DNA of 64,000 nt from Nitrospirota bacterium (GCA_963751455.1 CAVVUN010000015.1:192001-256000); one strand, 5' to 3'. Shown: positions 2,893-41,228, counted from the stretch's first letter. Notes: generated by a model from the letters alone, not told the origin. Made by a program: numbers and translations.

Positions 2893-3129
2893 GATCGACG
2901 CCGAAGCGATTCCTATGGTATCCACTTGTTGTTGGTTTAACAATCTCCCTTATTTAGCCCTATAAAGATAGCCGCAAAATGGCATTTTTCCCGTCTCAGC
3001 GACCCGTGAATAGTTGAAATTGCGTTGCATTTGCATTACAAAGTATCTATTTCTGTTAGATCAGCACTTATGGCGTTATTCAATTATAGATTTTACTTTC
3101 AAAATCAAATAGTTTAAAAATTGCTAATT

Positions 3130-3145
3130 TGGCATTACACGTGCA
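3130..3145 (+). promoter_or_regulatory. sigma54 (-24/-12) promoter of operon 1
   Basis: TGGCATTACACGTGCA has GG-N10-GC spacing, 45 bp upstream of the ATG at 3191 (RBS AAGGAGG); IHF-like AATCAAATAGTT just upstream; a sigma54 activator is encoded in the same cluster. Confidence 0.75.
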
Positions 3146-3190: not shown

Positions 3191-3865
3191 ATGGGCAACG
3201 AACTCTTATATGAATATCTAGCTGGAAAGATTCTCCAAGATCTGATTTCCTCTGTGCCATTGGATAATAATTTGGCAAAAGAACTGAATAAATATCCAGT
3301 AATCGATCACATAAGAGATCAGGTCCAAGACGTTCATTTTAGCACTATTTCAAAACTTATTGCTGCTAAGTCTTGCTCAAAAGAAGTGAAGCAGTTAGCA
3401 GTTGGTCTCTTGCACAAGTATATTAGGGCTGAAAGACATGGGACAGAAATTAAACTTTTACTGTCTGATCTCTGGGAAACAGGTGACATGGAAGAGAAGT
3501 TTCATGTTATGTGGCGATTGCTGGATTTCGGTGACCTTGAAGAAAGCTTCCATTATGAGATGTTTGCATTTTTAAAGAGCAATAAAGATTATATTCTGTC
3601 CAAAACATTAGGTTGGTGCGGCTCTGAAGCTAAAATTCTGGACTATGCTGCCTCAAGACTAACAAACAAGTCTTTTCCAAAAACAAAATCCTGGATTTAC
3701 TTATTTATTGCCTCTCTCAGTCCTGACAAAGAGAATGCAAAAAGTCTTATTTCAAAATATGCTGATGGCGCCCAGCCTGTCCTCCGCAGAGTTGCCGATG
3801 AAATTATAGACGAACTTGACTCTTCTGAATTACAAACCTTCAACGATCAAGTTTGTTTTTGTTGA
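3191..3865 (+). CDS. hypothetical protein (224 aa, probably all-helical)
   Basis: ORF with a strong RBS directly behind the sigma54 promoter; no recognised motif. Confidence 0.8.
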   Translation: MGNELLYEYLAGKILQDLISSVPLDNNLAKELNKYPVIDHIRDQVQDVHFSTISKLIAAKSCSKEVKQLAVGLLHKYIRAERHGTEIKLLLSDLWETGDMEEKFHVMWRLLDFGDLEESFHYEMFAFLKSNKDYILSKTLGWCGSEAKILDYAASRLTNKSFPKTKSWIYLFIASLSPDKENAKSLISKYADGAQPVLRRVADEIIDELDSSELQTFNDQVCFC

Positions 3866-4116: not shown

Positions 4117-4812
4117 ATGACCTATGAGTTCCCTGCTCTCCTCCCAAAGCTTTATAGTTTCACAGAGCCGTTTATTTTTTCAAAAATACTTTCTGATTCA
4201 AGAGTATTGGACGTAGGTTGTGGAGATGGTTATCTCACTAAAAGAATAATAATGAATACTAAGGCAAAGCAGGTCGTGGCAGTAGATATAAATGGCGACA
4301 TATTAATGAAAGCTGAAAGAACTCAGGCGGATACCAGAATAGAATATGTTCTTGGAGATGGCGAAGATTCCGAGCTATTTAAAATAATTGGTGGATTTGA
4401 TTTTATACTTCTCAGAAACACATTTCATCATTTTGATGATAAGGAAAAATTTTTAACAAATTTCTACAATCTTCTCAACAAAAGTGGTGTACTTCTAATC
4501 CTCGATTTGGACAAAGAAGCGAACTATTCCTTGCTGGGATTGCCTATTCCTTTACTGGTGACATTCTGGCAATCAGTTAAGATTAACGGTTTAATAGAAA
4601 CAACAAAAATATTATGGAATACTAAATTCTTTTTAAATAACACATTCAGAATGCACCGACATGAAGACCGGCAAAAACTTAAGCTTAGCGGGTGGCTGAC
4701 ATTCCAAGAAGTTAGCGAGAAAGTCATGAAACTTCTTCCCGGATGTAAGGTAGCTCGTTTGGGCAGCGTGTGTGGCTATGGAGGTTGTTATTATGTACTG
4801 TATCAAAAATGA
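4117..4812 (+). CDS. class I SAM-dependent methyltransferase
   Basis: VLDVGCGDG (motif I), VAVDIN, FDFIL..FHHF, LNKSGVLLILD. Confidence 0.9.
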   Translation: MTYEFPALLPKLYSFTEPFIFSKILSDSRVLDVGCGDGYLTKRIIMNTKAKQVVAVDINGDILMKAERTQADTRIEYVLGDGEDSELFKIIGGFDFILLRNTFHHFDDKEKFLTNFYNLLNKSGVLLILDLDKEANYSLLGLPIPLLVTFWQSVKINGLIETTKILWNTKFFLNNTFRMHRHEDRQKLKLSGWLTFQEVSEKVMKLLPGCKVARLGSVCGYGGCYYVLYQK

Positions 4813-5601
4813 TAATATCGGTTTCTGCGCTGAAAATGTTTCCAAAACCTTCGATTCTAATAACCAGCAGGAAGTTGTTTTAAAGGGATTCGATATCACA
4901 ATTGATCGAGGCGAATTTATTTCTATTCTAGGCCTTTCCGGCATAGGGAAAAGCACCGTATTTAAAATTTTGAGCGGTCTTACAGAACCTACAGATGGTA
5001 ACGTTACTTACGGCGGTATCCCCGTTAAATGCGCATTATCGCAACGCAAATTCAGCTGTGTTTTTCAACGCCCTGTACTGGCTGATTGGAGAACCGTAAT
5101 AGAGAATGCCTTATTGCCGCTCGAAATCTTAAGACCCAAAGACAAGGCAAACATTGATATTGCAAATAACCTCCTTAAAGCAGTCGGTTTGGAGAATGAT
5201 TTGTCTAAATATCCGAGAGAATTGTCTGGGGGCATGCGGCAAAGATTGAGTCTTGCGATGGCCCTTTCATACGATCCAGAAGTTCTCTTTCTCGATGAAG
5301 CGTTTGGCGCTCTCGATGCAGTAACTCGGAGAAAGCTTCAATCTCTCCTACTAAATATCTGGAGTGTATCTAACAAGAAACAAACGGTCATTTTTATAAC
5401 ACATGATGTGAATGAAGCTTGTTTTATGGCAGATCGAATATTTATTCTGAACAGGAAACCAATTTCAGTAATAAAGGAATTGATGATCCCTTTTCCAAGA
5501 CCCGGGATTTTAGTTTATTATATTCACCAGAATTCAAGGACATTGCGGAAGAGGCGTATAAAAGCATTGAATGCAATGGAGTTGAGAAATGTGTACTGTG
5601 A
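4793..5601 (+). CDS. ABC transporter ATP-binding protein, nitrate/sulfonate/pyrimidine (TauB/ThiZ-like) type; 1-nt frameshift near 5501-5506
   Basis: GLSGIGKST, LSGGMRQR, LFLDEAF, ITHD. The family-typical C-terminus PFPRP-RDFSLLYSPEF continues in the frame of ORF 5419..5601. Confidence 0.88.
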
Positions 5602-6200
5602 TTTCTGAAAATTCGATGGGGATCGCCTGGTTGATGTGTTTGAAATGGATAATTGAAAACGGCGATCAAATATTGGATGAAGATGTTAAATTAAATGAAT
5701 ATATTTCCCTTGTGTTAGATGTCAATCAACCTGATCAACTTGATTCAATAACCGAATCATTTTGGGCTTTGAAGTTCTGCGATGTTCAGCCTAAAACAAA
5801 AAATATTTTCGATTATATGTCAAGACTTAACAATTATAACGGCGTTAATCAGATTGATGTTATTCGAGATCGACTGCTAAGTAAACCCGAGACAAAATCC
5901 GCGACTGTAATAACTCTAATGCCCAGCAGTGATATTCAGAGAGTGCCATGTTTGGTATCCGCTGATTTTAAAATAAGGGGAGGAAAGTTGATAACGCAAT
6001 CTTTTTTTAGAAGTCAGGATGTATGGAACAAACAACCTTTTAATTTATTACTTCTAAAAAACGTTGCATCATTCTTAGCTAATGACCTTAATGTGAGGCT
6101 TGGGTCAATTAAACTGTACATCGCGTCTGCTCACATTTACGAGAGTGACCTTCAAGAAGCGACAACTTTCATAAAGGCAAATCATAAACATGGAATTTAA
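5589..6200 (+). CDS. thymidylate synthase-family pyrimidine C5 (hydroxy)methylase, short archaeal-like form
   Basis: NQIDVIRDRL..P, catalytic VPCL, RSQD....PFN, SAHIYE. Confidence 0.88.
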   Translation: MCTVISENSMGIAWLMCLKWIIENGDQILDEDVKLNEYISLVLDVNQPDQLDSITESFWALKFCDVQPKTKNIFDYMSRLNNYNGVNQIDVIRDRLLSKPETKSATVITLMPSSDIQRVPCLVSADFKIRGGKLITQSFFRSQDVWNKQPFNLLLLKNVASFLANDLNVRLGSIKLYIASAHIYESDLQEATTFIKANHKHGI

Positions 6201-6753
6201 TACTGGCCAAGTAGCTGTACTGGGCAAGGAAAAGATTAATCCGGAAATTCCGGAGCACCTCTATGCAATGGAAGAAGGTTACTTATTAGGAAAAGCACTT
6301 GGTCGAAAAAAGATAGTGGTTATTACTGGCGGGTTGGGTGGAATAATGGAAGCAGTCTCAAAAGGTGTGGCTGAATCCGGAGGTGTCTGTGCTGGCATCA
6401 TCCCTGTTTTATCCGAAGAAGAAAAGGTATTGAGAAAGCCAAATAAATATTCAACAGTCAAGATTAATACAGGGATGGATCAGCGATTGAGAATTCCGTT
6501 ACTTATTCGTTCGAGTGACGCCATTATCGTGATTTCAGGAGGCATGGGTGCGTGGCTTGAAGCAGCTTTTGCTCTGGCAAACGGACTTCCAATCATAACC
6601 TTGCCAAAAACTGGGGGAACTGCTGCGAGATTAGTATCGGAAAATCCATTTAAAGACAAAGTCCTCATTGCAAAAGATGGACTACATGCTGCTGAAATTG
6701 TGACTAATTTATTTAAAAAGGGGAATAAAGATGAAAACATTGTTGAAAAGTAA
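6190..6753 (+). CDS. LOG family (TIGR00725-like) nucleotide phosphoribohydrolase
   Basis: ITGGLGGIMEAVSKG..GG...GIIP, TGMDQRLR, SDAIIVISGGMGAWLE. Confidence 0.88.
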   Translation: MEFNTGQVAVLGKEKINPEIPEHLYAMEEGYLLGKALGRKKIVVITGGLGGIMEAVSKGVAESGGVCAGIIPVLSEEEKVLRKPNKYSTVKINTGMDQRLRIPLLIRSSDAIIVISGGMGAWLEAAFALANGLPIITLPKTGGTAARLVSENPFKDKVLIAKDGLHAAEIVTNLFKKGNKDENIVEK

Positions 6754-7729
6754 ACAGCTATTTGCTATCCTCTTATTTGCATTCTTCCTGGCTCTCGTTA
6801 GTTCCAATGCAAAAGCAGAGAAGCTGTCAAAAGTCAAGATCATGCTCGATTGGAAGCCAGGAGCCGAGCATTCCTTTCTTTATTTAGGACAAGAAAAGAA
6901 TATTTTCAGGGACAATGGTATTGATTTAGAAATAGTTCCAGGACAAGGTTCATCATACTCCGTTAATATGGTTGATGCAAGAAATGTTGACTTCGCTCTT
7001 TGTGCTGGCGAGTCCGCGCTACAAGGACGCAGCAGTGAACCACAGCGGAGCATTAAGGTACTTGCTATTTTCTATCCCAATACGCCAGCATCCGTTTATT
7101 CTTTAAAATCAAAAAATATTAAGAAACCGACCGATCTTTACGGCAAGAAAGTCGGTGTAATGAAAGGATCCTCTGCTTATAAGCAGTATCTAGCTTTTGT
7201 TGAAAAAGAGAACCTTGATAAGAATAATATAATTGAAATACCCTCTGCTGGAAGTATTCAAGAAATATTATCGGGAGACCTTGATGCTATGGTCCATTTT
7301 TCATTTCAACATCCTTTGCAGGTGAAGTTGAAAGGATATGGGATAAATGAAATTTTATTTAAGGATTACGGCGTAAAAGTTTACGGTCAGGGACTGATAG
7401 CGAGTGATGATACCTACAACTACAAAAAGGACTTAGCGAAACGAGTAGTTAAATCTGTAATATTATCGCTTCAATACTCATTGCAGCATCCAGAAGAAGC
7501 TTTGGGCGTATTTTTCAAGCTTTTCCCTGAACAAGATAGAGAGTACTCGAAAGCAAAACTGAACTGGGTTAATAGCTTTATCGAGCAAGGACAACACAAA
7601 GGGCAGCCTCTTGGGTATCAGGACGAAGAAGGTTGGAAAGCAACTCAATCTTATCTGTTGAGTCAGGGCCTCATCGATAAGAGTATTTCTCTAAGAAGTC
7701 TTTATTCTAACGAGTTCCTTGTAAGATGA
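6731..7729 (+). CDS. ABC transporter substrate-binding protein, NMT1/THI5 (ThiY-like) family
   Basis: Signal peptide; LDWKPGAEH..LYLGQEKNIF..NGIDLEI; IKKPTDLYGKKVG; VYGQGLIA. Confidence 0.88.
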   Translation: MKTLLKSKQLFAILLFAFFLALVSSNAKAEKLSKVKIMLDWKPGAEHSFLYLGQEKNIFRDNGIDLEIVPGQGSSYSVNMVDARNVDFALCAGESALQGRSSEPQRSIKVLAIFYPNTPASVYSLKSKNIKKPTDLYGKKVGVMKGSSAYKQYLAFVEKENLDKNNIIEIPSAGSIQEILSGDLDAMVHFSFQHPLQVKLKGYGINEILFKDYGVKVYGQGLIASDDTYNYKKDLAKRVVKSVILSLQYSLQHPEEALGVFFKLFPEQDREYSKAKLNWVNSFIEQGQHKGQPLGYQDEEGWKATQSYLLSQGLIDKSISLRSLYSNEFLVR

Positions 7730-8512
7730 AAAATATTTCGGTTAAATATTTGCTTGCTTTGTCGTTAGCCATTTCCTTATTGTTATGGGAAGGAATCGTC
7801 AGACTCTTTAATGTTTCAGCGGGCATATTCCCACCCGTCTCGATTGTCCTGGTGAAGATTTATGTCAAAAGAAATCTTTTATTCACTCACTTATCTTATA
7901 CGTTACTCGAAGATCGTCCTCGGTTTTGTCATCGGATTTATGACGGGGATAGTGCTTGCATTGATTTGTGACAGAATCACGATTATAAAAAAGATCCTTT
8001 ATCCGATACTGGTCTCCTTCCAATCTGTCCCTAAAATAGCAGTCGCGCCTCTTTTTGTTATCTGGTTCGGCTATGGGTTATTACCGAAGGTTATGATGGC
8101 TGCTATGATTTCTTTTTTTCCAGTTCTAATAAGTACTATGGCAGGATTAAGCGCTTATGATGAAGAAGTTAAAATGTTTATGGATATGCTTAATACTTCA
8201 TGGTGCCAAAGAATGTGGAAAATAAAGCTCCCTTATGCGATACCCTACATACTGACTGGCAGTAAAGTATCGATAACATTTGCAGCTGTAGGCGCTATAT
8301 TGGGTGAATTTGTGAATCCTAGCAAGGGGCTCGGGTATCTGATAGACATTGGTAAGGAAAATTTCGATACATCTTTGCAGTTTGCAGCAATTCTGCTGGT
8401 AAGCATCATGGGTTGGATCCTTTTCGAGGCCATATCTTTAATCGAGCTATTCTTCTTTAAGAAATACTCAAGATCTGTGTCCCAAGAAGGAATCGATACT
8501 CGATATGTCTAA
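7726..8512 (+). CDS. ABC transporter permease (SsuC/ThiX-like); 1-nt frameshift at 7910-7911
   Basis: WEGIVR..IFPP..YTLLE joins IVLGF..QSVPKIAVAPLFVIWFGYG..KLPYAIP..GAILGEF if one A is removed from CTCGAAGATC. Confidence 0.88.
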
Positions 8513-10055
8513 TCCGAAATTAAATACAATCGCACATTGGAGGGATAAAATAAATTTTGCTTATTTGGCAAGCAGCGGCGTCGAAGACTGCGCCGAGCGA
8601 ATTACCGACATTATTGAAAGCCCTGATTTTTTGTCTTTTCTATGGAAAGAGTTTTCATATTGGCGAGCGAATATTTATACGTCAGATCCAGACGGACATT
8701 TTGAGTGCCTTCATAGGGGCATAGACAATAAGAGACTTGCTTTTCAGATCAGAGTGCCTTGGCTTTGTATTCACATGGACAATAATGGGACACTTTCGCC
8801 AAAACTAGAAAGAGCTTATAAAGTCATAAGAAACAGTGAAAAACCGCAATTAGCTGACGAGAATTTTCGAGATGAATATGAAGCAAAATTATTTGATAAG
8901 AGACAGAGAGAGGAGATTACAAGTTCAACACGGCTTTATCATTGGTACAAAAATCACTGCAAAGATATGCGCAGATTTAATGAACTTTGCATTGTAGTAA
9001 CCGAAGGGGAGATGCTCTTCTATCGACTGATGACTGATCTCGACTTTAGGGGCCAAATAACGGCGAGAGAAACGAATAAAGTGATTGAATGGATAAACGA
9101 CAATGCAAAAAATAACGATGTCATAAATCTCATATCTCCACTAAAAGTGGCCGACTTCATTAAAAGTCTTCATGGAAAAAAAATTACGTTAACTACAGAT
9201 CGGGTAGACTTAGCATGGGATACTACTAAAATTAACCCCAAACGCGAAATGACTATCTTGAAAAGCAGGAATATTGTTTTTTTCCCGTGTGGCAAATTTT
9301 ATTCGCATGACCACTTATCTGAGGTTTTTTTCTTAGGCAGCTTTTATGATACTAAAAAGATGTTGGATAATATATCTGCTATTATTGCATTGTTCTCGGA
9401 TTTAGCTTTCAAAGGAATTAGTTTATATGAGCAGAAGCTTGGTGAGGAAAAACTCATTTATGATAGGCATCATGAATTCGGCAATACCATTGCGCGGTTA
9501 CAAAGTACCTTTAATCGAAATTTATCTCCAAACCAAAAATTACGAGAAATACGAAAGAAAATAGCTCTGCTTAGGGAATGCTATTATGACTGGATAGACC
9601 CTAAGCGTCTTGAGTCAATTGAAAAGGTCGATATTTCTCAAATATTAAAAGAACTAAAGAATTTGTCGGAATCAACTCCGTATCCCAAGCATTTCAGCCA
9701 TCTCAAAAGCATTTATTATGTCAAAGCGAACAAGAGACTTCTTTCGAGTTCTATATTCGAACTTATACGTAACTCTATCAAACATACAAACGAAACACTC
9801 ATAGATAATTACCTTAAAATCAGTGCCAAGATAGAAAATAACAGAGTATTTATAACGATCTCAGATATGGCAAACAGTCTTACAGAAGAGATTTTCAAGG
9901 AATCTGCAAATAATCCTATTTTGAACCAGAACGGAGCGCATAAAGGTTTATATACTTCAAGAAAATATATCGAAAAACTTGGCGGCACTCTTTCGTTTCA
10001 TCCTAAACAGCCGAGAGGATCAATATTAATTATAACTCTTCCAGTGGAGCGATAA
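8505..10055 (+). CDS. soluble sensor histidine kinase with a large unrecognised N-terminal domain
   Basis: H-box HHEFGNTI, N-box ELIRNSIKH, degenerate G1 (ISDMAN), G2 HKGLYTSRKYIEKLGG; no obvious TM segment. Confidence 0.8.
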   Translation: MSNPKLNTIAHWRDKINFAYLASSGVEDCAERITDIIESPDFLSFLWKEFSYWRANIYTSDPDGHFECLHRGIDNKRLAFQIRVPWLCIHMDNNGTLSPKLERAYKVIRNSEKPQLADENFRDEYEAKLFDKRQREEITSSTRLYHWYKNHCKDMRRFNELCIVVTEGEMLFYRLMTDLDFRGQITARETNKVIEWINDNAKNNDVINLISPLKVADFIKSLHGKKITLTTDRVDLAWDTTKINPKREMTILKSRNIVFFPCGKFYSHDHLSEVFFLGSFYDTKKMLDNISAIIALFSDLAFKGISLYEQKLGEEKLIYDRHHEFGNTIARLQSTFNRNLSPNQKLREIRKKIALLRECYYDWIDPKRLESIEKVDISQILKELKNLSESTPYPKHFSHLKSIYYVKANKRLLSSSIFELIRNSIKHTNETLIDNYLKISAKIENNRVFITISDMANSLTEEIFKESANNPILNQNGAHKGLYTSRKYIEKLGGTLSFHPKQPRGSILIITLPVER

Positions 10056-10056
10056 A

Positions 10057-11580
10057 ATGAACTTTTACAGATTCCTTGTCGTTGATGATGAAAATGATAT
10101 TCGACATAGTCTGGAAATGCTTCTTAAAAAACATTATAAAAAGTCACAAGTCTTCACTGAAAGTAACGGTGTGGATGCAATTAAAACATTAAGACATAAT
10201 AAAGTTGATCTGATTATTTCGGATATGATAATGCCTGCTATGGATGGGATGGATTTACTGCATCAGGTGAAATCGGAAATGCCTGATATTCAGTTTATTA
10301 TGATAACCGGATATGCGACAGTTGAAAGCGGCGTACGCGCTATGAAAGAGGGGGCATCTGACTATATAACGAAACCTTTTGATGAAGATGCTGTCATACT
10401 TCAAGTATCAAGATGTCTCAAAATGAAAAAATTGCAGGAAATCGATCTTAGGAATTCGGCAGCTCTTGAGGGATTAATTTTTAAGAGTAAAAAGATGAAG
10501 GAATTAACAGATGAAATTGAAAAAATTTCTGCTGAAGAAGCAGAAGTTCTAATTACGGGAGAATCAGGCGTCGGTAAAGATTTGGTGGCAAGACTCATTC
10601 ACTACAATCATAAAAGTAAGCGTAAGACTTTGCCTTTTTTGAATCAAAATTGTGCTGCAATACCTGACAGCCTTTTAGAAAGTATATTATTCGGTCACAA
10701 AAAGGGTACTTTTACAGGAGCAACTGACGATGCGGATGGGCTTTTCAAAAAGGCAGACGGGGGAACAATATTTCTGAACGAGATAGGCGATATGCCTCTT
10801 CTATTACAAGCAAAAGTTCTGAATGTAATTGAGAGCCAAGATTTTAGACCGGTAGGTGGTACAGAGAACATAAAAGTGAATGTGAGATTAATTTCTGCAA
10901 CTAACAAGGACTTGAGTGAAGAAATCGAGAAAGGTACATTTAGAAGTGATCTTTACTGGAGGATTAGTACATATCCGATAAAAATCCCAGCTCTGAGGGA
11001 AAGAAGAGAAGATATCGCAGACTTGTCAAAGCATTTTATTAAAACTATTTCTATTAATAATGGGAAAGAAATTAAAGATATTTCTTCTAATGCTCTTTCG
11101 CTTCTTGAAGCATATCCTTTCCCAGGAAATGTAAGAGAATTACGAAGTATTATTTTGCGTGCTAGCATTTCATGCAATGGTGATATGATCGAACCCGCGC
11201 ATCTCCCAGAATATATCAAATCATATAAAGAAGGTAATGCAAGTAAAAAATTTACCGATCTCTCTAATATTGGATTGGCAGACGTAGTAAAGAGTTTTCG
11301 AGCTCACGGCTCTTTCGACAAGTCAGATAAACTGGGACAGCTAGTAGAAAATATAATTGACCAAAACAAGGGCAATGTTACTGAACTCTGTAGTAAATTG
11401 AAAACCACTTCTTTAAGCTGGCAAATCGGAACTACACCTGACAAAATAAATCGCGCAGTCAATCAAAGCAATGGGAAGCTTTTCTATGCTGTTGTTGATA
11501 ACGGAAAAGTCAAAAAATGCGAGCAGAAAAGAAAAACGAAGAATTGCTTTGTCTATGCAGCCAGCAAATTAAACGACTAG
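10057..11580 (+). CDS. sigma54-dependent response regulator (REC-AAA+, NtrC family)
   Basis: LVVDDE, ISDMIMP, YITKPF; GESGVGKD, GTFTGA, FLNEIGD, ATNKDL, FPGNVREL. Confidence 0.93.
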   Translation: MNFYRFLVVDDENDIRHSLEMLLKKHYKKSQVFTESNGVDAIKTLRHNKVDLIISDMIMPAMDGMDLLHQVKSEMPDIQFIMITGYATVESGVRAMKEGASDYITKPFDEDAVILQVSRCLKMKKLQEIDLRNSAALEGLIFKSKKMKELTDEIEKISAEEAEVLITGESGVGKDLVARLIHYNHKSKRKTLPFLNQNCAAIPDSLLESILFGHKKGTFTGATDDADGLFKKADGGTIFLNEIGDMPLLLQAKVLNVIESQDFRPVGGTENIKVNVRLISATNKDLSEEIEKGTFRSDLYWRISTYPIKIPALRERREDIADLSKHFIKTISINNGKEIKDISSNALSLLEAYPFPGNVRELRSIILRASISCNGDMIEPAHLPEYIKSYKEGNASKKFTDLSNIGLADVVKSFRAHGSFDKSDKLGQLVENIIDQNKGNVTELCSKLKTTSLSWQIGTTPDKINRAVNQSNGKLFYAVVDNGKVKKCEQKRKTKNCFVYAASKLND

Positions 11581-11990: not shown

Positions 11991-13268
11991 ATGGAACAGA
12001 TCGCTGACATTAGCAACCGGCGCATTATTAAACGGAATTCTGGACTTACCGCAACAGCAGCTGCTTTTTGCCTCGCTCCCTTCTTCTGTGATGGGGCAAT
12101 TCCAAAACGTATCGAGATCGAAGACATCGAAAAGATTTATTCCAGCCACACACCTCTCATTGTAAAACTCTTGACCGCAGATAGCGGTTGGTATGCCATC
12201 AGTGGCAAAGAATTATTCCTTACACACGAAGGCGATGCATCACAGCTGCATGTCGGCGAAATGACTTGGATGGCATCATCGCTGGCAGCAATGATGGACG
12301 GCGGGCGACATATGAAGGGAGTCATCGCCGCGAGCAAAATAATAGGGTCAGCAAGCACCTATACTCCATACCTGAAAGAAATTAAAACGATTCTCGACAG
12401 TGGCGGGATCACTCAACTGGTGGAAATCGGTCAAGGTTCCGGAGAGTGCATTTGCCAACTGCTTGCCTCGTACCCGACTGTCACTGGTTTAGCAATCGAT
12501 CTCGATCACGAAGCAGCAAAATTAACAAACAAGACCGCCAGCAAATTCGGCGTAAGTGACAGACTAACCGTAATTACCGGCGACGTGAATGACGGCTTGC
12601 CCGAGGATCACTTGTCCGGGAAGATGCTCATAATCGCGGGGTTCGTAATGCACGATTTTGTCGATATCGCCGCGGGAATCCAAACATTGAGTAGGGTAAT
12701 CCCGGTTGGCACGAGAGTCGTTCTTGCGGAGTTGGTCAGTAAGGTATCAGACGATCCGTTCGCAACCGCGATTATCGGGTTCCATTGTAAAAGTGGAAAA
12801 GATATTCCATCAACCGATCAGTGGAAGCAGATATTTCATGACGCCGGTCTTCATGTCGAAAATATCGAAAAGTACGCTGTAATGCCCGGGGCGGCAATAT
12901 TCAACCTGGTAAAATCTAATCCAACACCTCGTTTCATCCCAGCGGCGCAAAAGATATTTTCGAATCATGATGAGGAAGTTTTTACGCTAGATCTGGCCGC
13001 GCTCCAGCTACGGCACGCAGTAGAATCCGCCCTAGTGGATATGTCCCAATTTCCTGAAGGAATCAGTTCTGGTCACACTCACGACTGCGATGAGACGTAC
13101 ATCATTACTTCCGGCGTTGTCGATGTAATTGTTGATGGGGTGACCAAGCAGGTAACGGGGCCAATCGCGGTTTACATCCCTGCCGGATGCACCCATCATT
13201 GGAAGCCGGTTGATGTAAAAAAAGGCGATCATATAATCGGTTTTTTCACAAAGGGAGGTTCAAAATGA
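11991..13268 (+). CDS. MppJ/MrsA-like (2-oxo-acid C-methyltransferase-like) SAM methyltransferase fused to a C-terminal cupin
   Basis: EIGQGSGE..L..YP.VTGLAID, GFVMHDF and GFH...IPSTDQW..IF..AG resemble MppJ; cupin HTHDCDE...IPAGCTH. Confidence 0.7.
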   Translation: MEQIADISNRRIIKRNSGLTATAAAFCLAPFFCDGAIPKRIEIEDIEKIYSSHTPLIVKLLTADSGWYAISGKELFLTHEGDASQLHVGEMTWMASSLAAMMDGGRHMKGVIAASKIIGSASTYTPYLKEIKTILDSGGITQLVEIGQGSGECICQLLASYPTVTGLAIDLDHEAAKLTNKTASKFGVSDRLTVITGDVNDGLPEDHLSGKMLIIAGFVMHDFVDIAAGIQTLSRVIPVGTRVVLAELVSKVSDDPFATAIIGFHCKSGKDIPSTDQWKQIFHDAGLHVENIEKYAVMPGAAIFNLVKSNPTPRFIPAAQKIFSNHDEEVFTLDLAALQLRHAVESALVDMSQFPEGISSGHTHDCDETYIITSGVVDVIVDGVTKQVTGPIAVYIPAGCTHHWKPVDVKKGDHIIGFFTKGGSK

Positions 13269-14335
13269 TCAAGCATGCATTAAAAAAAGGGATCTTATTC
13301 AAACCTATAATCGGCGCGTCGATTCAGAATCCTTCGCTTGCGAAACTTTTTGCTCATATTTACGCGCTTGCCGGAGCTCTTCTTATAGATGTTCGAGGAG
13401 AAGCAAAAATGGTAAGGGCTGTCAGAGAGGGTATAAAGGAAGCAGGCGGATCCACAGCAGTAATAGCAAGCGTCAGCCCCATGCAGAACGATCCGCATTT
13501 TTTAAAGGCAGCCATCGACTGGATGGCTTGCGAAGGTTGCGGACAGTGTGAGGCTGTATGCCCACATGGCGCGATCAGCATTTTGGAAATCAATAAGGCG
13601 AGAGTTACAACGGAGAATTGTCGTGGTTGCGGTCATTGTTTGGACGTATGTCCGTCAACGGCCATTAAGCTGACCGATCCAGAACGTGCCGATTCGCTTC
13701 AAGGGATTGTGCGTGAATGCATGGACGCTGGAGCAGACAGTATTGAGTTTCACCTGAGCGGAATGAACGATAATGAAGTCCATTCTGTTATCAGCAGTCT
13801 GAAAGATGAAATCCGTACCATTAATAGCGGAGGTTATCCCGTTTCGATATGCGTTGGTAGCCTTCAATCTAGTCCTGCTGAGATACTCGAAGTAGTGAAA
13901 ATGCTGATCAGTCTTTTAGGAAGTGAAGGCTTCTTTATACAGGCTGACGGCGAGACAATGGCAGAGACAAAGCGTGGCTACGGTCTCCAAAGTTTAGCAC
14001 TTGTATCGCTCATTACCGGTGCTTATCCGAATGTAAGGGTTATTGCAAGCGGCGGGACGACTGAGAAGACCTGGGATGTAGCAAGAATGTTAAAGATACC
14101 GATCTCAGGCATTGGGATGGGGCTACGATCCTTTGAGGCCGTAAAACCTTACATTTTCGGTGACCAAATTTCAGATGTGACAGACGCTGTCAGCGCGGCA
14201 AGAACTCTATCGTGTCCGTTCGAATCAATGAACAATGACCACGACGAAACACTTTTCAAGGGCAGTGCGTGGCATACTTTGAATTCAAGGGAGGCATACA
14301 ATGAAACAATCATTACAGAATCCAAATGGTCTTAG
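13265..14335 (+). CDS. LdpA-like 2x[4Fe-4S] protein
   Basis: FKPIIGAS, YALAGA..IDV, DPHFLKA, two CxxCxxCxxxCP motifs, GADSIEFH, QADG, SGGT follow the cyanobacterial LdpA pattern. Confidence 0.8.
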   Translation: MIKHALKKGILFKPIIGASIQNPSLAKLFAHIYALAGALLIDVRGEAKMVRAVREGIKEAGGSTAVIASVSPMQNDPHFLKAAIDWMACEGCGQCEAVCPHGAISILEINKARVTTENCRGCGHCLDVCPSTAIKLTDPERADSLQGIVRECMDAGADSIEFHLSGMNDNEVHSVISSLKDEIRTINSGGYPVSICVGSLQSSPAEILEVVKMLISLLGSEGFFIQADGETMAETKRGYGLQSLALVSLITGAYPNVRVIASGGTTEKTWDVARMLKIPISGIGMGLRSFEAVKPYIFGDQISDVTDAVSAARTLSCPFESMNNDHDETLFKGSAWHTLNSREAYNETIITESKWS

Positions 14336-15074
14336 GATCTTTTTCGAGGAAGAGCTTTCGAAGTTCGTCACTTTCTTAAAGGTAGGCACTGAGTCTGAGG
14401 CTATGATGTTGCCATTCATAGCAATGCTGATAAACCTTGTGCGTAAGGAGAAGGTTGTTTGTAAAATTGGAGGACCTGATGCGCGCACAGACATTCATGA
14501 GATGTATCGGATCGGTATTCTTCGGTTTGTCGGTCCTATGATTGAGTCGCCCTTCGGTGTAAAAAAATTTATCGAGGCGATTACGAAAACCGTAGGATTG
14601 AGTTCAATTGAGGAGCTTACGATTAATGTCGAATCCATTACTGCATTCAACCAAATCGACGATATCCTTGCCGCTTCTAATGACCAGATCCATCGAATTA
14701 ATGTTGGCTTCAGCGATTTAGCAGCATCTGTTGGGGGCACAGTGACGGATCTGGAGCTGCTGAGAATGGCAAAAGAACTTCGAAATCGGTGCAAAATTAT
14801 CGGCAAGGAGTTCAGTTTTGGCGGAACGGTTACACCTGAGAATATTGAAAAGCGTCTTGAGTTCCTGGAACCGGATGGTTTTGAAACGAGGATGTTCGGA
14901 TTCTCTGGGACGATAGCTAATGCAGCCGTGGTGGTAAAAAAAGCTCTTGAGTTCGAGGCCGCTGTAGAAAGTTATTTCGCAGCCAATCAGCAGCGTCTCG
15001 TAAACGCAAGTATAAATCGTGCGGCATCCATTAACAAAAGATTGACAAGTGATTTTTTTACACTTGTCGCTTAA
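14301..15074 (+). CDS. HpcH/HpaI aldolase / citrate lyase beta family protein
   Basis: KIGGPDA, PMIES.F, INVES, G.SDLAAS, FETR. Confidence 0.8.
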   Translation: MKQSLQNPNGLRIFFEEELSKFVTFLKVGTESEAMMLPFIAMLINLVRKEKVVCKIGGPDARTDIHEMYRIGILRFVGPMIESPFGVKKFIEAITKTVGLSSIEELTINVESITAFNQIDDILAASNDQIHRINVGFSDLAASVGGTVTDLELLRMAKELRNRCKIIGKEFSFGGTVTPENIEKRLEFLEPDGFETRMFGFSGTIANAAVVVKKALEFEAAVESYFAANQQRLVNASINRAASINKRLTSDFFTLVA

Positions 15075-15126
15075 CACACAACGACGGGGGAGGTAACGCC
15101 TCCCCCAATTATAAAAGGAGATTATC

Positions 15127-15855
15127 ATGACAAACATACTTCACTATAACGCCCCTGATTTAATGGAATTTGATAGTGTAATAACCGGCATCCGCAGTGA
15201 TGGCAGCGAAGTAATATTGGCGGAAACCTGCTTCTATAGCGAAGGCGGCGGGCAACCGAGTGATTTTGGACAAATAGATGTCAACGGTACGATATACAAA
15301 GTTACTGCAGTAAGAACCCTCGGGGACACGGTTTACCATAGCGTCGACCGTAATGTTACGAGTGGAATCGTCGGTGCAACCGTCCACGGCAGTGTAGACA
15401 AGGGCAGAAGGAAGTATCATTCTCGGCATCATAGTGCCTTGCATTTGCTGAATGCGTTTATGTTTCAGAACTTTAACGTCCGTGTGACAGGCGGGCAGGT
15501 GGGAACCCCCGGCGAGTTCAGTCGGCACGACTTTGAGCTTGATCGGGGTCTTTCACTGGAAGAACGGAGTCGTTTGGAAACATGGGTAAATCAGATCATT
15601 GCAGAAGACCGGCCTGTCACGGCAAGAATCTTTTCCGAAGAAGAAGCAAAGCTCATTCCGGGTTTCTGCCGAACACGTAACGTTGATATCCGAAAAACCA
15701 ATGGCGGAATAAGAGGAATAGAAATAGCAGGAGTCGACATCCAGGCATGTGGAGGAACTCACGTGAGCCGCACCGGAGAAATCGGTAAGTTCAGGGTTCA
15801 GAAGATTGACAACAAAGGATCGAATTTACGGCGAATCAAGATTATGCTCGCCTGA
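15127..15855 (+). CDS. alaX: free-standing alanyl-tRNA editing protein (AlaX-M type)
   Basis: TCFYSEGGGQPSD.G, HSALH (HxxxH), CGGTH (CxxxH), TGEIG. Confidence 0.92.
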   Translation: MTNILHYNAPDLMEFDSVITGIRSDGSEVILAETCFYSEGGGQPSDFGQIDVNGTIYKVTAVRTLGDTVYHSVDRNVTSGIVGATVHGSVDKGRRKYHSRHHSALHLLNAFMFQNFNVRVTGGQVGTPGEFSRHDFELDRGLSLEERSRLETWVNQIIAEDRPVTARIFSEEEAKLIPGFCRTRNVDIRKTNGGIRGIEIAGVDIQACGGTHVSRTGEIGKFRVQKIDNKGSNLRRIKIMLA

Positions 15856-16224: not shown

Positions 16225-17442
16225 ATGAAGAAACTCGAGAAATTACGGCCAATCCACCCGTTTCCGGCTAGAATGGCGCCGGGTATCGCCTTTGATGTTT
16301 TGGCTGAAGCAAAAAAGCCATTACGGGTTCTGGATCCCATGATGGGTTCTGGTACTGTGCTCGCTGTGGCCCGATCTAAAGGTCATCGCGCTATTGGTAT
16401 TGATATTGATCCGCTCGCTGTTCTTATTTCAAAAGTTTGGACAACTTCGGTAGATCCGGACGCTGTGCAGGACAAGGCAGTTGATGTTCTTGATCGAGCA
16501 GTAGATATCTTCGCAAGGTTACCAACCCGAAATGCATACCCTCGTGGGGCAGATCAACTGACGCGACAATTCATTACATACTGGTTTGATGATTATGCTC
16601 GGAGACAACTTACATCGCTAGTAATGGCAATAGAGCGAGTTAAGGATGATACTGTTCGCAACCTGCTCTGGTGCGCTTTCTCTCGGCTTATCATCACTAA
16701 GCAGTCGGGAGCTTCTCTCGCAATGGATCTATCTCATAGTCGGCCTCATAAGTCTTTTGCTCGTGCACCTGCTAAACCCTTCAGAAACTTTCTTGGCATG
16801 GTAAATCGCGTTGTTCCAAATTGCATCGATAAAAATTCTAAAAATCGAGGGCCAGCAACACAAACATATGAAGGGGACGCTCGCGCATTGCCGCTTGAAA
16901 GTCATTCAGTAGATTTGGTCTTGACATCTCCTCCTTATTTAAATGCATTAGATTACATCCGTTGCAGCAAATTTACATTAGTCTGGATGGGATACAGGAT
17001 TGAGGAGCTTCGACGTTTGCGAAGTCAGAGTGTCGGTACTGAATCATGCAGAGCGAAGATAGCTGACGATAAAGATATTGCTCATCTCATCACTGACTTA
17101 AAGTTACGGCCCGCTCTTGGGACAAAAGATAAAAGACCTCTTGCACGGTACATCTATGACATGCGTCTAGCCGTACACGAAGTTTCCCGCGTTCTTAAGC
17201 CGGGTGGCAGGGCCATCTATGTAATTGGTGAGAATACGATCAAGGGTACCTATATTAGAAATTCGCATATAGTGTCTGCCGTGGCAGAGCTTGCTGGGCT
17301 TAGTCTCATTGAGCGACGTGTACGAAGATTACCAGCAAATCGGCGTTACCTTCCGCCGCCGACGTCACGTCATAGCGTTGCTGCGCTAGATGCACGAATG
17401 CGAAGTGAAGTGATATTGTCATTTAAAGGAGTTGTGCCTTAG
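16225..17442 (+). CDS. DNA amino-methyltransferase (probably N4-cytosine, alpha motif order)
   Basis: HPFPARM, motif I LDPMMGSGT, motif IV LTSPPY, RVLKPGG. Confidence 0.88.
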   Translation: MKKLEKLRPIHPFPARMAPGIAFDVLAEAKKPLRVLDPMMGSGTVLAVARSKGHRAIGIDIDPLAVLISKVWTTSVDPDAVQDKAVDVLDRAVDIFARLPTRNAYPRGADQLTRQFITYWFDDYARRQLTSLVMAIERVKDDTVRNLLWCAFSRLIITKQSGASLAMDLSHSRPHKSFARAPAKPFRNFLGMVNRVVPNCIDKNSKNRGPATQTYEGDARALPLESHSVDLVLTSPPYLNALDYIRCSKFTLVWMGYRIEELRRLRSQSVGTESCRAKIADDKDIAHLITDLKLRPALGTKDKRPLARYIYDMRLAVHEVSRVLKPGGRAIYVIGENTIKGTYIRNSHIVSAVAELAGLSLIERRVRRLPANRRYLPPPTSRHSVAALDARMRSEVILSFKGVVP

Positions 17443-17492
17443 AAAATTATTAACAAGACCTAGGGCAATAAGCACGTATCTATCATGAGTTT

Positions 17493-19370
17493 ATGATGGA
17501 GAATATAAAAATGGATTTTAACTTAAATAGCTTAAAACAAGAAACAGAAATTGGTCATCGCTACGAAAAGCGGATTGCTTATCTTGTCAATAATGGGCAA
17601 GAAGTCGAAAGAATTAAAATCGTTGTTGAAACGGCAATAGATAATATCAAAAAAGGTCAAAAATCATTCGTTATCTACGGTGAACCTCAAAGTGGAAAGA
17701 CAGAAATGATGATTGCCCTGACAGCAAAGTTACTTGATGAAGGGCATAAAATCATTCTCGTCTTACTTAATGATAGTGTTCAATTACTGGGTCAGAACCT
17801 CGAACGTTTTCAACGCTCTGGCCTGTCACCATCACCTAAGAAATTCAGTGAAATATTAACTCCAGAAGTAAAGATTGGAGATAGACAGTGGATTATATTT
17901 TGTAAAAAAAATGCCAAAGATTTATATAAGCTAATTCTGAAAATTGAAGGTCGTAAAAGTCGTGTCGTTGTGGACGATGAGGCTGATTATGCAACGCCAA
18001 ACTCAAAAATTAACAAAAAAGAGAAAAGTAAAATAAACGAATTGACGGAGTCGTTAATTGGAAATGAAGGTATATACATTGGGGTCACAGCGACTCCGGC
18101 TAGACTTGATTTGAACAGAACTCATAAAAACCAAAATGAATATTGGATAGATTTTCCGCCACACTCTAATTATGTAGGGCAGGATATATTTTTCCCTGTG
18201 TCTGTTGAGAATCCAAAGTTCGGCCTATCATTTCTTTCCGATACGGGCGATCTTCCAAGACATCTTCGAGAATCGTTATTCCGCTTTGTTGTGGATGTGG
18301 CATACTTGAACATCGAGGTAAACGAGCGTGAGAAAAATTATTCTATGTTAATTCACACAAGCGGTAAAAAAAATGATCACATTGTGGATTATAAGCAAGT
18401 AATTAAAATATTTGAAACACTTCGTGATGACAAAAATAATAATCACGAATCGTATTATAAAAAAATATGGGAAACAGCAGCCTCAATATATCCAGAAAAG
18501 AAAAGCGAAATCGTAAAGTATATTATCGCTAATTGTGACCGCAATAACGTTGTGGTGATGAATAGCGATAAAGAGGTGAATGCTGCAGATAATAGAACCG
18601 CGACCGATCCTTCGGCTCCTTTTACGATAATCATAGGAGGAAATATTGTATCACGCGGTGTGACGTTTAATAATTTACTTTTAATGTTCTTTACGAGAGA
18701 TGTTAAGCATAAGCTCCAACAAGACACGTATATTCAGAGAGCAAGAATGTTTGGATCTCGCAAATCCTACCTAGGCTATTTTACATTAGTGATTCCGAAA
18801 ACATTATTCCTCGATTGGCAGCGATGCTTTATTTTTCACAGACTATCGCTCGAGGCAAGAAAACAAAATAATAGATCGCCAGTATGGCTTGATGGTGAAA
18901 GAATCACGGCCGCTGCAAGCACAAGTATTGATAAAACAAATATCGTTATAGACAAGGGTGAGATGAGTTTTGATTTATTCGATTATGACGAGGTCGGAAT
19001 TGCTCACATTTTAGATGAGAATATGTCAGCGTTAGGGAAGATAAAAGCTCTGAATGGACTGCTCGGCAAGCCGTGTTTGCCTGATTATTTAGTAAACTAC
19101 ATGGAAAGTTTTTGTCCCTCAGGAGATGACTCGATCGCTGTACATCATCCGAAAAGCATTGCGGGCTACGCTGACAAAAAAGGGGAAATTGATAAGGCAA
19201 CAATTACACGTACAAAGGGTTTTATCGGGGACAATCAACTTGAGCTTGGGAAGTATCCGAATGCGATTCATCATATTAACATTCTTTTTAATAACATAGG
19301 TAAAGCGCGTATTTTCTACAAATATCAGGGCAATATAAGATTTTTAAAGACCGCAAAGAAAAATGATTAG
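17493..19370 (+). CDS. Z1-domain SF2 helicase-like protein
   Basis: GEPQSGKT, DDEAD, TATP, SMLIHTS, IGGNIVSRGVT, DTYIQRARMFG. Confidence 0.88.
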   Translation: MMENIKMDFNLNSLKQETEIGHRYEKRIAYLVNNGQEVERIKIVVETAIDNIKKGQKSFVIYGEPQSGKTEMMIALTAKLLDEGHKIILVLLNDSVQLLGQNLERFQRSGLSPSPKKFSEILTPEVKIGDRQWIIFCKKNAKDLYKLILKIEGRKSRVVVDDEADYATPNSKINKKEKSKINELTESLIGNEGIYIGVTATPARLDLNRTHKNQNEYWIDFPPHSNYVGQDIFFPVSVENPKFGLSFLSDTGDLPRHLRESLFRFVVDVAYLNIEVNEREKNYSMLIHTSGKKNDHIVDYKQVIKIFETLRDDKNNNHESYYKKIWETAASIYPEKKSEIVKYIIANCDRNNVVVMNSDKEVNAADNRTATDPSAPFTIIIGGNIVSRGVTFNNLLLMFFTRDVKHKLQQDTYIQRARMFGSRKSYLGYFTLVIPKTLFLDWQRCFIFHRLSLEARKQNNRSPVWLDGERITAAASTSIDKTNIVIDKGEMSFDLFDYDEVGIAHILDENMSALGKIKALNGLLGKPCLPDYLVNYMESFCPSGDDSIAVHHPKSIAGYADKKGEIDKATITRTKGFIGDNQLELGKYPNAIHHINILFNNIGKARIFYKYQGNIRFLKTAKKND

Positions 19371-19878
19371 AGAGTTCGAATTTTATCATGGCGCCGTTTT
19401 TACATGTCTCTTGCATGGAATGCCGAGAGAGGTGTCCATACAATTGTTTCCTACTCAGGATAACGCATCTTATGTGATAGACAATAAAATAGGAATATAT
19501 ATTAAATACTCTTCCAAACGACTCTCGCCGTGGACCTTTTCATTCCAAAGCAGACACCAAGATGAAATTGCAGAGATGAAAAATAAAATAGGATTTGCTT
19601 TCGTACTTTTAGTTTGCAATGATGATGGCGTTGTTGTGTTAAGTTTTGAAGAGCTTAAACAGATTTTAGATCAATCTAATGGTGGGACAGAGTGGATCAG
19701 TGTTGCAAGGAACCGAAGGGAAATGTATTCCGTCAAAGGCTCAAATGGTAAATTGCAATTCAAAATTGGCAAAAATGATTTTCCCAGTAAAATATTTAAT
19801 CGCATCAATCAATCGCCGACAAAAAAAGAACAAGAAAGTGCTCATCTCAGAAGTGAGGGCAATATTCTTGTACCGTGA
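19363..19878 (+). CDS. hypothetical protein overlapping the Z1 gene; possible restriction-endonuclease-like fold
   Basis: Overlaps the Z1 stop; YIKYS..WTFSF..E pattern; fold assignment is a guess. Confidence 0.65.
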   Translation: MIREFEFYHGAVFTCLLHGMPREVSIQLFPTQDNASYVIDNKIGIYIKYSSKRLSPWTFSFQSRHQDEIAEMKNKIGFAFVLLVCNDDGVVVLSFEELKQILDQSNGGTEWISVARNRREMYSVKGSNGKLQFKIGKNDFPSKIFNRINQSPTKKEQESAHLRSEGNILVP

Positions 19879-41135: not shown

Positions 41136-41228
41136 GATATAGTCCTGATAAAGCCGAACCCTTTGCAAGGAGGGGGCGGAAAGTAACGGGTCTCTCCAAA
41201 CGGAGACAGCCGAGCTGCCGGGAATATC
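41136..41228 (+). ncRNA. cyclic dinucleotide riboswitch (c-di-GMP-I / GEMM)
   Basis: GCCGAACC-CTTT-GCAA-GGAG-GGGGCGGAAAG-TAACGGGTCTC..GAGACAGCCGAGCTGCCG matches the GEMM layout (GNRA tetraloop, receptor, P1 GATAT/ATATC); a terminator-like hairpin follows at 41218-41260. Confidence 0.88.

Follow-up and report, generated by a model that had tools for sequence, protein, structure and literature searches.

The locus considered here lies in a stretch of 64,000 nucleotides from a Nitrospirota bacterium (GCA_963751455.1 CAVVUN010000015.1:192001-256000), which is referred to at its full length as the window. Its core consists of six genes, encoding an S-adenosylmethionine (SAM) methyltransferase, an ATP-binding cassette (ABC) ATPase, a thymidylate synthase (TS)-like protein, a LOG protein, an NMT1/THI5-fold binding protein and an ABC permease (Table 1). 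Gene calls and domain scans confirmed the original prediction for this DNA that these genes stand here on the plus strand with overlapping starts and stops (by 20, 20, 11, 23 and 4 nucleotides, from each start to the preceding stop), and the gene coordinates confirmed that the TS-like and LOG genes are placed between the ATPase and the binding-protein gene. The operon is longer than the six genes then described, being coupled onward into a histidine kinase gene, whose start overlaps the permease stop, and then into the gene of a sigma-54 response regulator.

Table 1. Features of the operon and of its upstream side, numbered from the first letter of the window
Feature	Position	Strand	Basis or remark
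SAM methyltransferase (class I)	4117..4812	+	Pfam Methyltransf_11
NitT/TauT-type ABC ATPase	4793(ATG)/4772(GTG)..5608	+	domain matches
TS-like protein, divergent archaeal-type thymidylate synthase homologue	5589..6200	+	TIGR03283 match, alignments
LOG/SLOG protein, LDcluster4, predicted nucleotide 5'-monophosphate nucleosidase	6190..6753	+	TIGR00725
Periplasmic NMT1/THI5-fold binding protein, distinct subfamily	6731..7729	+	Pfam NMT1 1e-34
ABC permease, split by frameshift near 7910	7726..8512	+	matches to L026 and L027 permeases
Histidine kinase	8505..10055	+	HATPase_c
Sigma-54-dependent response regulator, receiver and AAA+	10057..11580	+	domain matches
224-residue helical protein, perhaps HEAT-like	3191..3865	+	module membership uncertain
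Candidate sigma-54-type -24/-12 promoter-like site	3129..3145	+	46 nucleotides before first ATG (pattern match)

The TS, LOG and NMT1 set, for which a neighbourhood survey had been proposed, was found again in a metagenome scan (7 loci out of 192 pattern matches), namely at L026 and at L027/L030. At L026, which is cut off upstream, the genes follow the window order of ATPase, TS, LOG, NMT1, permease, kinase and regulator. At L027, a 508-residue methyltransferase-ATPase fusion is accompanied by NMT1, permease, TS and a LOG that is broken, and the kinase pair is missing; L030 has flanks nearly identical to those of L027 and an intact LOG. The proteins of L026 and L027/L030 are 30-60% identical to those of the window. 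Since this set of genes reappears at both L026 and L027/L030, its clustering is not due to chance, and the module is real, rare and conserved across lineages. As a separate observation, the LOG gene at L027:5542-5950 is without an internal stretch found in the L030 copy, which represents an assembly artefact or a strain variant.

A search of 300 further genomes of the phylum gave no close homologues of the module, the binding-protein subfamily was found in none of 63 genomes of the family, and 301 genomes of another phylum, searched without a positive control, added no further context. In one actinobacterial class (401 genomes), three genomes gave a TS-domain match with no LOG half, and one of these three was inspected. 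Among viral contigs, neither the binding protein nor the LOG-linked TS branch described below had a relative, and plasmids gave distant matches only, the nearest binding-protein locus (31%) being without an annotated TS or LOG gene. The genome-collection scan used motifs of the wider TS clade (the KS clade, see below) and consequently under-samples the LOG-linked branch. In literature searches pairing these components, within a collection with few subscription papers, no title or abstract opening described such a cluster. The GC content of the operon is 38-39% versus 51% for the genome, an IS110 transposase lies just upstream of the operon block, and the operon is likely mobile.

Two breaks affect the transporter genes of the window copy. 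The permease is split into open reading frames at 7726-7971 and 7862-8512, which align one after the other with the unbroken permeases of L026 and L027, and the ATPase tail shifts frame near 5500; in the other frame, which stops at 5599-5601, it reads RDFSLLYSPEFK, resembling the L026 tail. These frameshifts could reflect either sequence error or gene decay. Additionally, because the methyltransferase and ATPase genes share an A5 run where they overlap, each being read in its own frame, a methyltransferase-ATPase fusion masked by assembly error is possible in the window, and a GGAGG site preceding the ATPase ATG counts against such a hidden fusion.

The TS-like protein and its LOG partner

The host genome carries an intact ThyX (C3) and DHFR, with no other ThyA-family gene. 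Because of this intact ThyX, the TS-like protein is not considered the housekeeping enzyme, which bears out the earlier reading of it as accessory. In the wider KS clade, a separate ThyA or ThyX was found in six of eight other genomes, the remaining two having been checked for one family only. A second ThyX copy of the host genome, at G000:C15:1683-2252, is interrupted by an in-frame TGA. The best family model was that of the methanogen-type TS (TIGR03283), at 112.7 bits, under the cut-off of 174.55; this family has the same length, Cys, and RS-D-N and SAHIY motifs as the TS-like protein. Identity as a housekeeping ThyA or methanogen-type TS was rejected, considering the sub-cut-off score, the KS found in place of RR, the accessory status relative to ThyX and the separate tree branch.

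Alignments showed that C121, R141, S142, D144, N152, H182 and Y184 are kept, with C121 corresponding to the nucleophile, D144 to Asp169 and H182/Y184 to the sugar-binding pair. N152, invariant in 13/13 members of the LOG-linked branch, aligns with MilA D186. The base-specifying residue in the TS fold is Asn for uracil and Asp for cytosine, and the ribose determinants of MilA are Lys133 and Ala176 (PMC5175136). The base acted on is probably uracil, and the uracil type originally predicted for this enzyme was borne out by N152 at the base-specifying position. K103 aligns with the ribose determinant K133 of MilA and is invariant in 51/51 rows; together, K103 and S104 replace the RR phosphate clamp, hence the name "KS" clade. 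R118 occupies the Leu143 position, which holds Gln or Lys in close relatives. It was reported that methylation goes with Leu143, hydroxymethylation with an acidic residue at that position and flavin hydroxylation with D169N, and that flavin-dependent 5-hydroxy-dCMP synthases such as AfhB combine D169N with N177D (PMC13326640). The TS-like protein fits none of these three signatures.

The predicted structure of the TS-like protein (predicted local distance difference test, pLDDT, 91.7) matched best AfhB (9iqc; VIA Z 20.8, root-mean-square deviation, rmsd, 2.5, 190 aligned residues), followed by MilA (5jnh; Z 19.3, rmsd 2.4, 192 aligned) and by ordinary ThyA folds at Z 18.9 and below, with AfhB and MilA effectively tied. 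Regarding the methylated or hydroxymethylated uracil originally predicted as the product, the uracil type stood on account of N152, and the methyl or hydroxymethyl chemistry stays putative, given the tie between the AfhB hydroxylase and MilA and the lack of a signature fit. AfhB and RB69 gp48, both flavin-dependent dCMP 5-hydroxylases, share with the TS-like protein the compact architecture, the RSQ motif and a non-Gly residue at the Gly173 position, whereas they act in phage DNA modification and the TS-like protein belongs to a cellular operon. An AfhB-type identity was rejected by the D169N rule, since the TS-like protein has D144 and, at 152, Asn rather than Asp.

The LOG protein scored 107.5 bits against TIGR00725, above the cut-off of 106.9, and its R101 and E124 are invariant in 7/7 aligned rows. 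LOG phosphoribohydrolases use a catalytic Arg and Glu and carry a PGGxGTxxE motif (PMC6864091), and a LOG-fold nucleosidase that prefers UMP, NmYgdH, is known (PMC12500856). A TS profile search over 1.84 billion representatives listed 150 matches, and domain scanning of 30 of the longer ones revealed four TS-SLOG fusions, three fusions with a methyltransferase, one with Ham1 and one with NUDIX. P0187 represents a fifth, partial TS-LOG fusion. The TS-LOG fusions share the RSQDxxx(K/R)QPxN signature with the TS-like protein of the window.

A quick tree of 178 rows and a careful tree of 59 rows (13 branch members and 46 hand-picked outgroup rows) were built, and the window TS, L026, L027 and the fusions were found on one side of a branch of 13 rows with support 98/95. 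All eight branch members with known context have the same LOG, five of them as fusions, the other 5/13 being without context. A LOG profile run over L001-L052, with flanks of up to 8 kb, detected LOG relatives in 3/52 loci (L026, L027 and L030) and in 0/25 genome loci of other TS branches, and the TS-methyltransferase fusions P0112 and P0160 fall outside the LOG-linked branch. Each of the other KS-clade branches shows distinct partners and a distinct residue signature, the partners being AIRS/ThiL-like (9 loci), pyruvate-kinase-like (9) and a family without annotation that is in part accompanied by HAD (5). The original proposal that LOG would replace MilB/BcmB fits these data, because the five TS-LOG fusions occur in the TS-like protein's own branch, and a putative logic of modifying the nucleotide and then releasing the base is well supported by gene context.

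The clusters for bacimethrin (BcmA, BcmB, BcmC) and mildiomycin (MilA/MilB) resemble the module in pairing a TS-fold enzyme with a base-releasing hydrolase and in holding SAM methyltransferase and ABC genes. The equivalent of MilA Lys133 is present as K103, whereas Asp186 and Ala176 of MilA are replaced by Asn (uracil-type) and Ser, and the MilB/BcmB hydrolase is of the nucleoside 2-deoxyribosyltransferase type, in contrast to the LOG fold of the module. Neither a MilB/BcmB-type N-glycosidase nor thiaminase I or ThiD was found among the scanned genes of the window, L026 and L027. Unlike those clusters, the module has relatives in which the methyltransferase is fused to the ATPase, and a kinase/regulator pair is attached in two of its three lineages (window and L026). 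Membership in the bacimethrin/mildiomycin group was rejected in the absence of Asp186, Ala176 and a MilB-type hydrolase.

Methyltransferase, importer and kinase/regulator pair

The methyltransferase has a conserved RNTFHHF motif and a conserved amphipathic insert, and shares 32% identity with the N-terminal domain of the fusion L027:1644-3170 and 48% with that of the fusion P0062. P0062 was the sole methyltransferase-ATPase fusion match among 985 longer candidates; in its cluster, 10 of 15 members have 634-649 residues and represent one lineage. For one of the cluster members, as for the binding protein P0082, the longest contig listed measures 57,555 bases, which suggests that the two may share an operon. 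The fusion to the ABC ATPase, seen in two lineages, assigns the methyltransferase to the importer and hints at modification coupled to uptake. The role of a BcmC-like tailoring enzyme, initially assigned to it, was consequently not borne out, as the fusions (L027, P0062) join it to the ATPase and not to TS or LOG; BcmC-like tailoring would be one option only. The methyltransferase model (pLDDT 73) was nearest to Coq5/CouO/NovO (TM score 0.58-0.64), a generic class I likeness from which the fold search gave no substrate assignment. In PADLOC 2023, five of the six window proteins tested had no match and the methyltransferase matched only the generic SAM domain of mad2; a catalogued anti-phage system was rejected, with no system-specific match.

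The binding-protein subfamily comprises 21 clusters at E <= 1e-60, the window protein included, among 1736 candidates. Its alignment revealed the motifs DWxxGxEH, GE..Q and HFxFQHP, and the window protein has its own invariant polar residues E46, E94, Q98 and Q193, with an N-terminus that reads as signal-peptide-like. The nearest PDB entries are 4nmy and ThiY 3ix1. The ThiXYZ importer of hydroxymethylpyrimidine (HMP) and formylaminopyrimidine (FAMP) shares with the module the NMT1/THI5 fold, a NitT/TauT-type ATPase and permease, and an N-terminal Asp-Trp. Of the ThiY ligand residues D38, W39, Y188 and E192, the last of which binds HMP, the first two are matched by D40 and W41; the E192 region holds Pro or Gln, and no Glu, in two mutually differing alignments. 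ThiY itself is distant (67 bits), with no Glu or Tyr clearly aligned with its ligand residues, and little weight is given to the binding protein as a predicted ThiY orthologue. No thiamin pyrophosphate (TPP) riboswitch was detected in the window, L026, L027 or L030 (L026 being without its upstream end), and no thiamin genes occur among the module neighbours. Because of the missing TPP riboswitch and the two ThiC-family genes of the host genome, HMP salvage is unlikely. With respect to the ThiY-type importer of the original prediction, the fold held, and the type itself stays putative, no Glu being aligned with the HMP-binding Glu of ThiY and no TPP riboswitch being detected. From fold and context, the ligand would be pyrimidine-like.

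The kinase is 34% identical over 518 residues, its full length, to the L026 kinase, and in both loci a receiver/AAA+ gene follows. It has no clear membrane helix (highest 19-residue hydropathy 1.5), His324 is present, and its N-terminal sensor region is conserved and GAF-like by weak Atlas leads (0.90-0.91). The window contains a single match to the -24/-12 pattern, the candidate site, against 0.52 expected, and 38/100 shuffles gave one; the probability of a match in the shuffled 241-nucleotide upstream stretch was 3.5e-4. RpoN is present in the genome. An IHF-like site at 3103 was rejected (P 0.5), matches to sigma-70 promoters and terminators were at chance level, and upstream repeats yielded none that was convincing. 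Between the 3191-3865 gene and the methyltransferase gene, no terminator-like site was found on the plus strand. The protein encoded by this upstream gene had no Pfam, NCBIfam or PADLOC match and an Atlas HEAT-like lead of low recognition value; the gene is absent upstream in L027, and L026 is cut off at that point.

Interpretation of the module and related neighbourhoods

The best reading of the module, which is given about an even chance, is that it would make, import and sense a modified uracil. In this mechanism, the TS-like enzyme would modify C5 of a uridine nucleotide (UMP or dUMP), LOG would cut the modified uracil off as a free base, the methyltransferase would cap this base next to the ABC importer at the membrane, the importer would take up the modified base or its precursor and, where present, the kinase and the sigma-54 regulator would sense the base. 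Judged from gene context and residues, TS and LOG are likely to act in sequence, and, granted this, a uracil-type base is very likely; the importer would quite probably carry the same compound or its precursor, and the balance somewhat favours action of the methyltransferase on that compound. A role of the product as a signal to the kinase is proposed tentatively, with somewhat less than an even chance. As a first guess, the C5 group would be hydroxymethyl or hydroxyl, then capped by the methyltransferase; these are ranked ahead of plain methyl because the methylation-linked Leu is a basic residue here. The importer had at first been thought merely to recapture the product; the kinase/regulator pair, missed at the time, points to sensing instead. 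Should the product be what the kinase detects, it would represent a nucleobase signal of a new class.

In cytokinin metabolism, IPT modifies AMP, LOG releases the base and a histidine kinase senses it, and in the autoinducer-2 (AI-2) Lsr system a modifying enzyme is coupled to an ABC importer in a circuit of import, modification and sensing. The module would share with these systems nucleotide modification, LOG release, uptake and two-component sensing, as well as the link between a modifying enzyme and an ABC importer; it would differ in using a pyrimidine in place of a purine and TS in place of IPT, and in that its kinase is cytoplasmic and works through a sigma-54 activator. A cytokinin-like pyrimidine signalling system, in which non-standard C5 chemistry and LOG would be followed by an uptake-coupled methyltransferase trapping or switching the base, and in which the cytoplasmic kinase and sigma-54 activator would feed back on the operon's own promoter, is rather unlikely when taken as a whole.

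Several observations weigh against the make, import and sense reading. The DNA context comes from only three lineages, and L027/L030 are without kinase and regulator; the kinase G1 box of the window is degenerate (DMANS versus DTGNG in L026), and the -24/-12 pattern was picked after the site had been seen. The LOG motif reads SGGMGAWLE, with Ala for Thr in the window copy only and Thr in the other 6/7. The invariant S142 stands at MilA Ala176, so that, of the two ribose determinants of MilA, just the Lys is kept; one phosphate-binding Arg is Ser and another seems absent, and K148 occupies the Gly173 position near C5. Because of these alterations at the phosphate site and near C5, the substrate or cofactor may not be a plain nucleoside monophosphate plus folate. 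Lastly, a genome-wide comparison of paralogues gave a background of 14 frameshift-like junctions over 83,332 aligned residues, which corresponds to roughly one in every 18 kb; the two frameshifts within 4.4 kb of transporter genes exceed this background (Poisson P ~0.03), and the window copy of the operon may therefore be decaying.

An antimetabolite pathway, in which TS, LOG and methyltransferase would make a toxic uracil analogue recaptured by the importer, with the kinase pair merely a neighbouring regulator, is considered unlikely. Bacimethrin follows the same enzyme logic and its clusters also carry ABC transporter genes (PMC12345177, PMC5627462), MilA is among the two nearest folds of the TS-like model, and L027/L030 demonstrate that the core exists without the kinase pair. 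However, a periplasmic binding protein implies import, a costly activity for an organism that makes a toxin; the methyltransferase has the ATPase, and neither TS nor LOG, as its fusion partner; and no ThiD-type kinase, thiaminase or exporter was found in the three loci. An improbable alternative is uptake and disposal, where the importer would admit a foreign or damaged pyrimidine or nucleotide, the methyltransferase would neutralise it and the TS-like protein and LOG would clear the nucleotide from the pool. LOG1 overexpression shields yeast from 5-fluorouracil and 6-N-hydroxylaminopurine (HAP), and LOGs were proposed to have been originally degraders of non-canonical nucleotides (PMC5940212). 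Additionally, the methyltransferase sits on the importer, the cofactor-site residues of the TS-like protein are altered, and sister KS-clade branches pair with Ham1, NUDIX and HAD hydrolases; these pairings fit house-cleaning equally well and also weigh against the make, import and sense reading. Nevertheless, it would be odd for a cell to take up a poison just to detoxify it, the operon holds no ring-degrading or salvage enzyme, and the characterised TS homologues put groups on C5, not off (PMC5175136, PMC13326640).

Ordinary chemistry, with a second TS making dTMP or ribo-TMP from which LOG would free thymine, or with enzymes and transporter as co-transferred cargo, is considered very unlikely. 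The methanogen-type TS is the best family model, the residues C121, D144, N152, H182, Y184 and S142 are conserved, and the genome encodes DHFR; yet the score lies below the family cut-off, RR is changed to KS, Leu to Arg and Gly to Lys, and the genome also encodes ThyX. Moreover, different lineages repeat the interleaved gene order and both kinds of fusion.

In the wider KS clade, specificity residues vary with gene neighbours, which offers a map of predicted pyrimidine chemistry. In nine loci (L001, L003, L005, L007, L008, L011, L012, L016 and L021), an AIRS/ThiL-like gene directly precedes the KS-clade TS, which carries RSQN (D169N) and Asn177, and by the D169N rule these enzymes may hydroxylate a uracil nucleotide. 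A Schlafen/AlbA-NACHT gene faces the AIRS/ThiL-like and TS pair in 8/9 of them. Nine archaeal KS-clade clusters (L002, L004, L006, L009, L017, L018, L020, L022 and L025) hold a pyruvate-kinase-like gene and an unannotated family in 9/9, a QueC-like gene in 7/9 and Ham1 in 4/9. At L015:5835-9854 (Wukongibacter baidiensis), one run comprises a 708-residue protein, a KS-clade TS, a HAD phosphatase and a PycTM-like effector with two transmembrane segments; motif reading indicates a cyclase-like N-terminus for the 708-residue protein, which has no Pfam match, and the run is possibly a Pycsar-like system with a TS homologue. Relatives of this protein pair with TS at L010, L013, L019 and L024. In P0121, P0183 and P0199, the KS-clade TS is fused behind an N-terminal region of about 200 residues with hydrophobic, membrane-helix-like stretches and no Pfam match, and P0121 had no PADLOC match. 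MtrA-TS-DUF4346 fusions (P0138, P0171, P0175 and others) also occurred among the long matches and belong to the RR clade where checked.

Elsewhere in the window, a separate operon of higher GC content (11991-15855) encodes a methyltransferase-cupin fusion and LdpA-like 4Fe-4S, HpcH/HpaI-like and AlaXM-like editing proteins. Three AT-rich genes at 16225-19878 resemble those of a DNA methyltransferase, by its TSPPY motif, and of a helicase-like and a small nuclease-like protein. At 41144-41223, a c-di-GMP-I-GGC riboswitch was detected above its gathering score.

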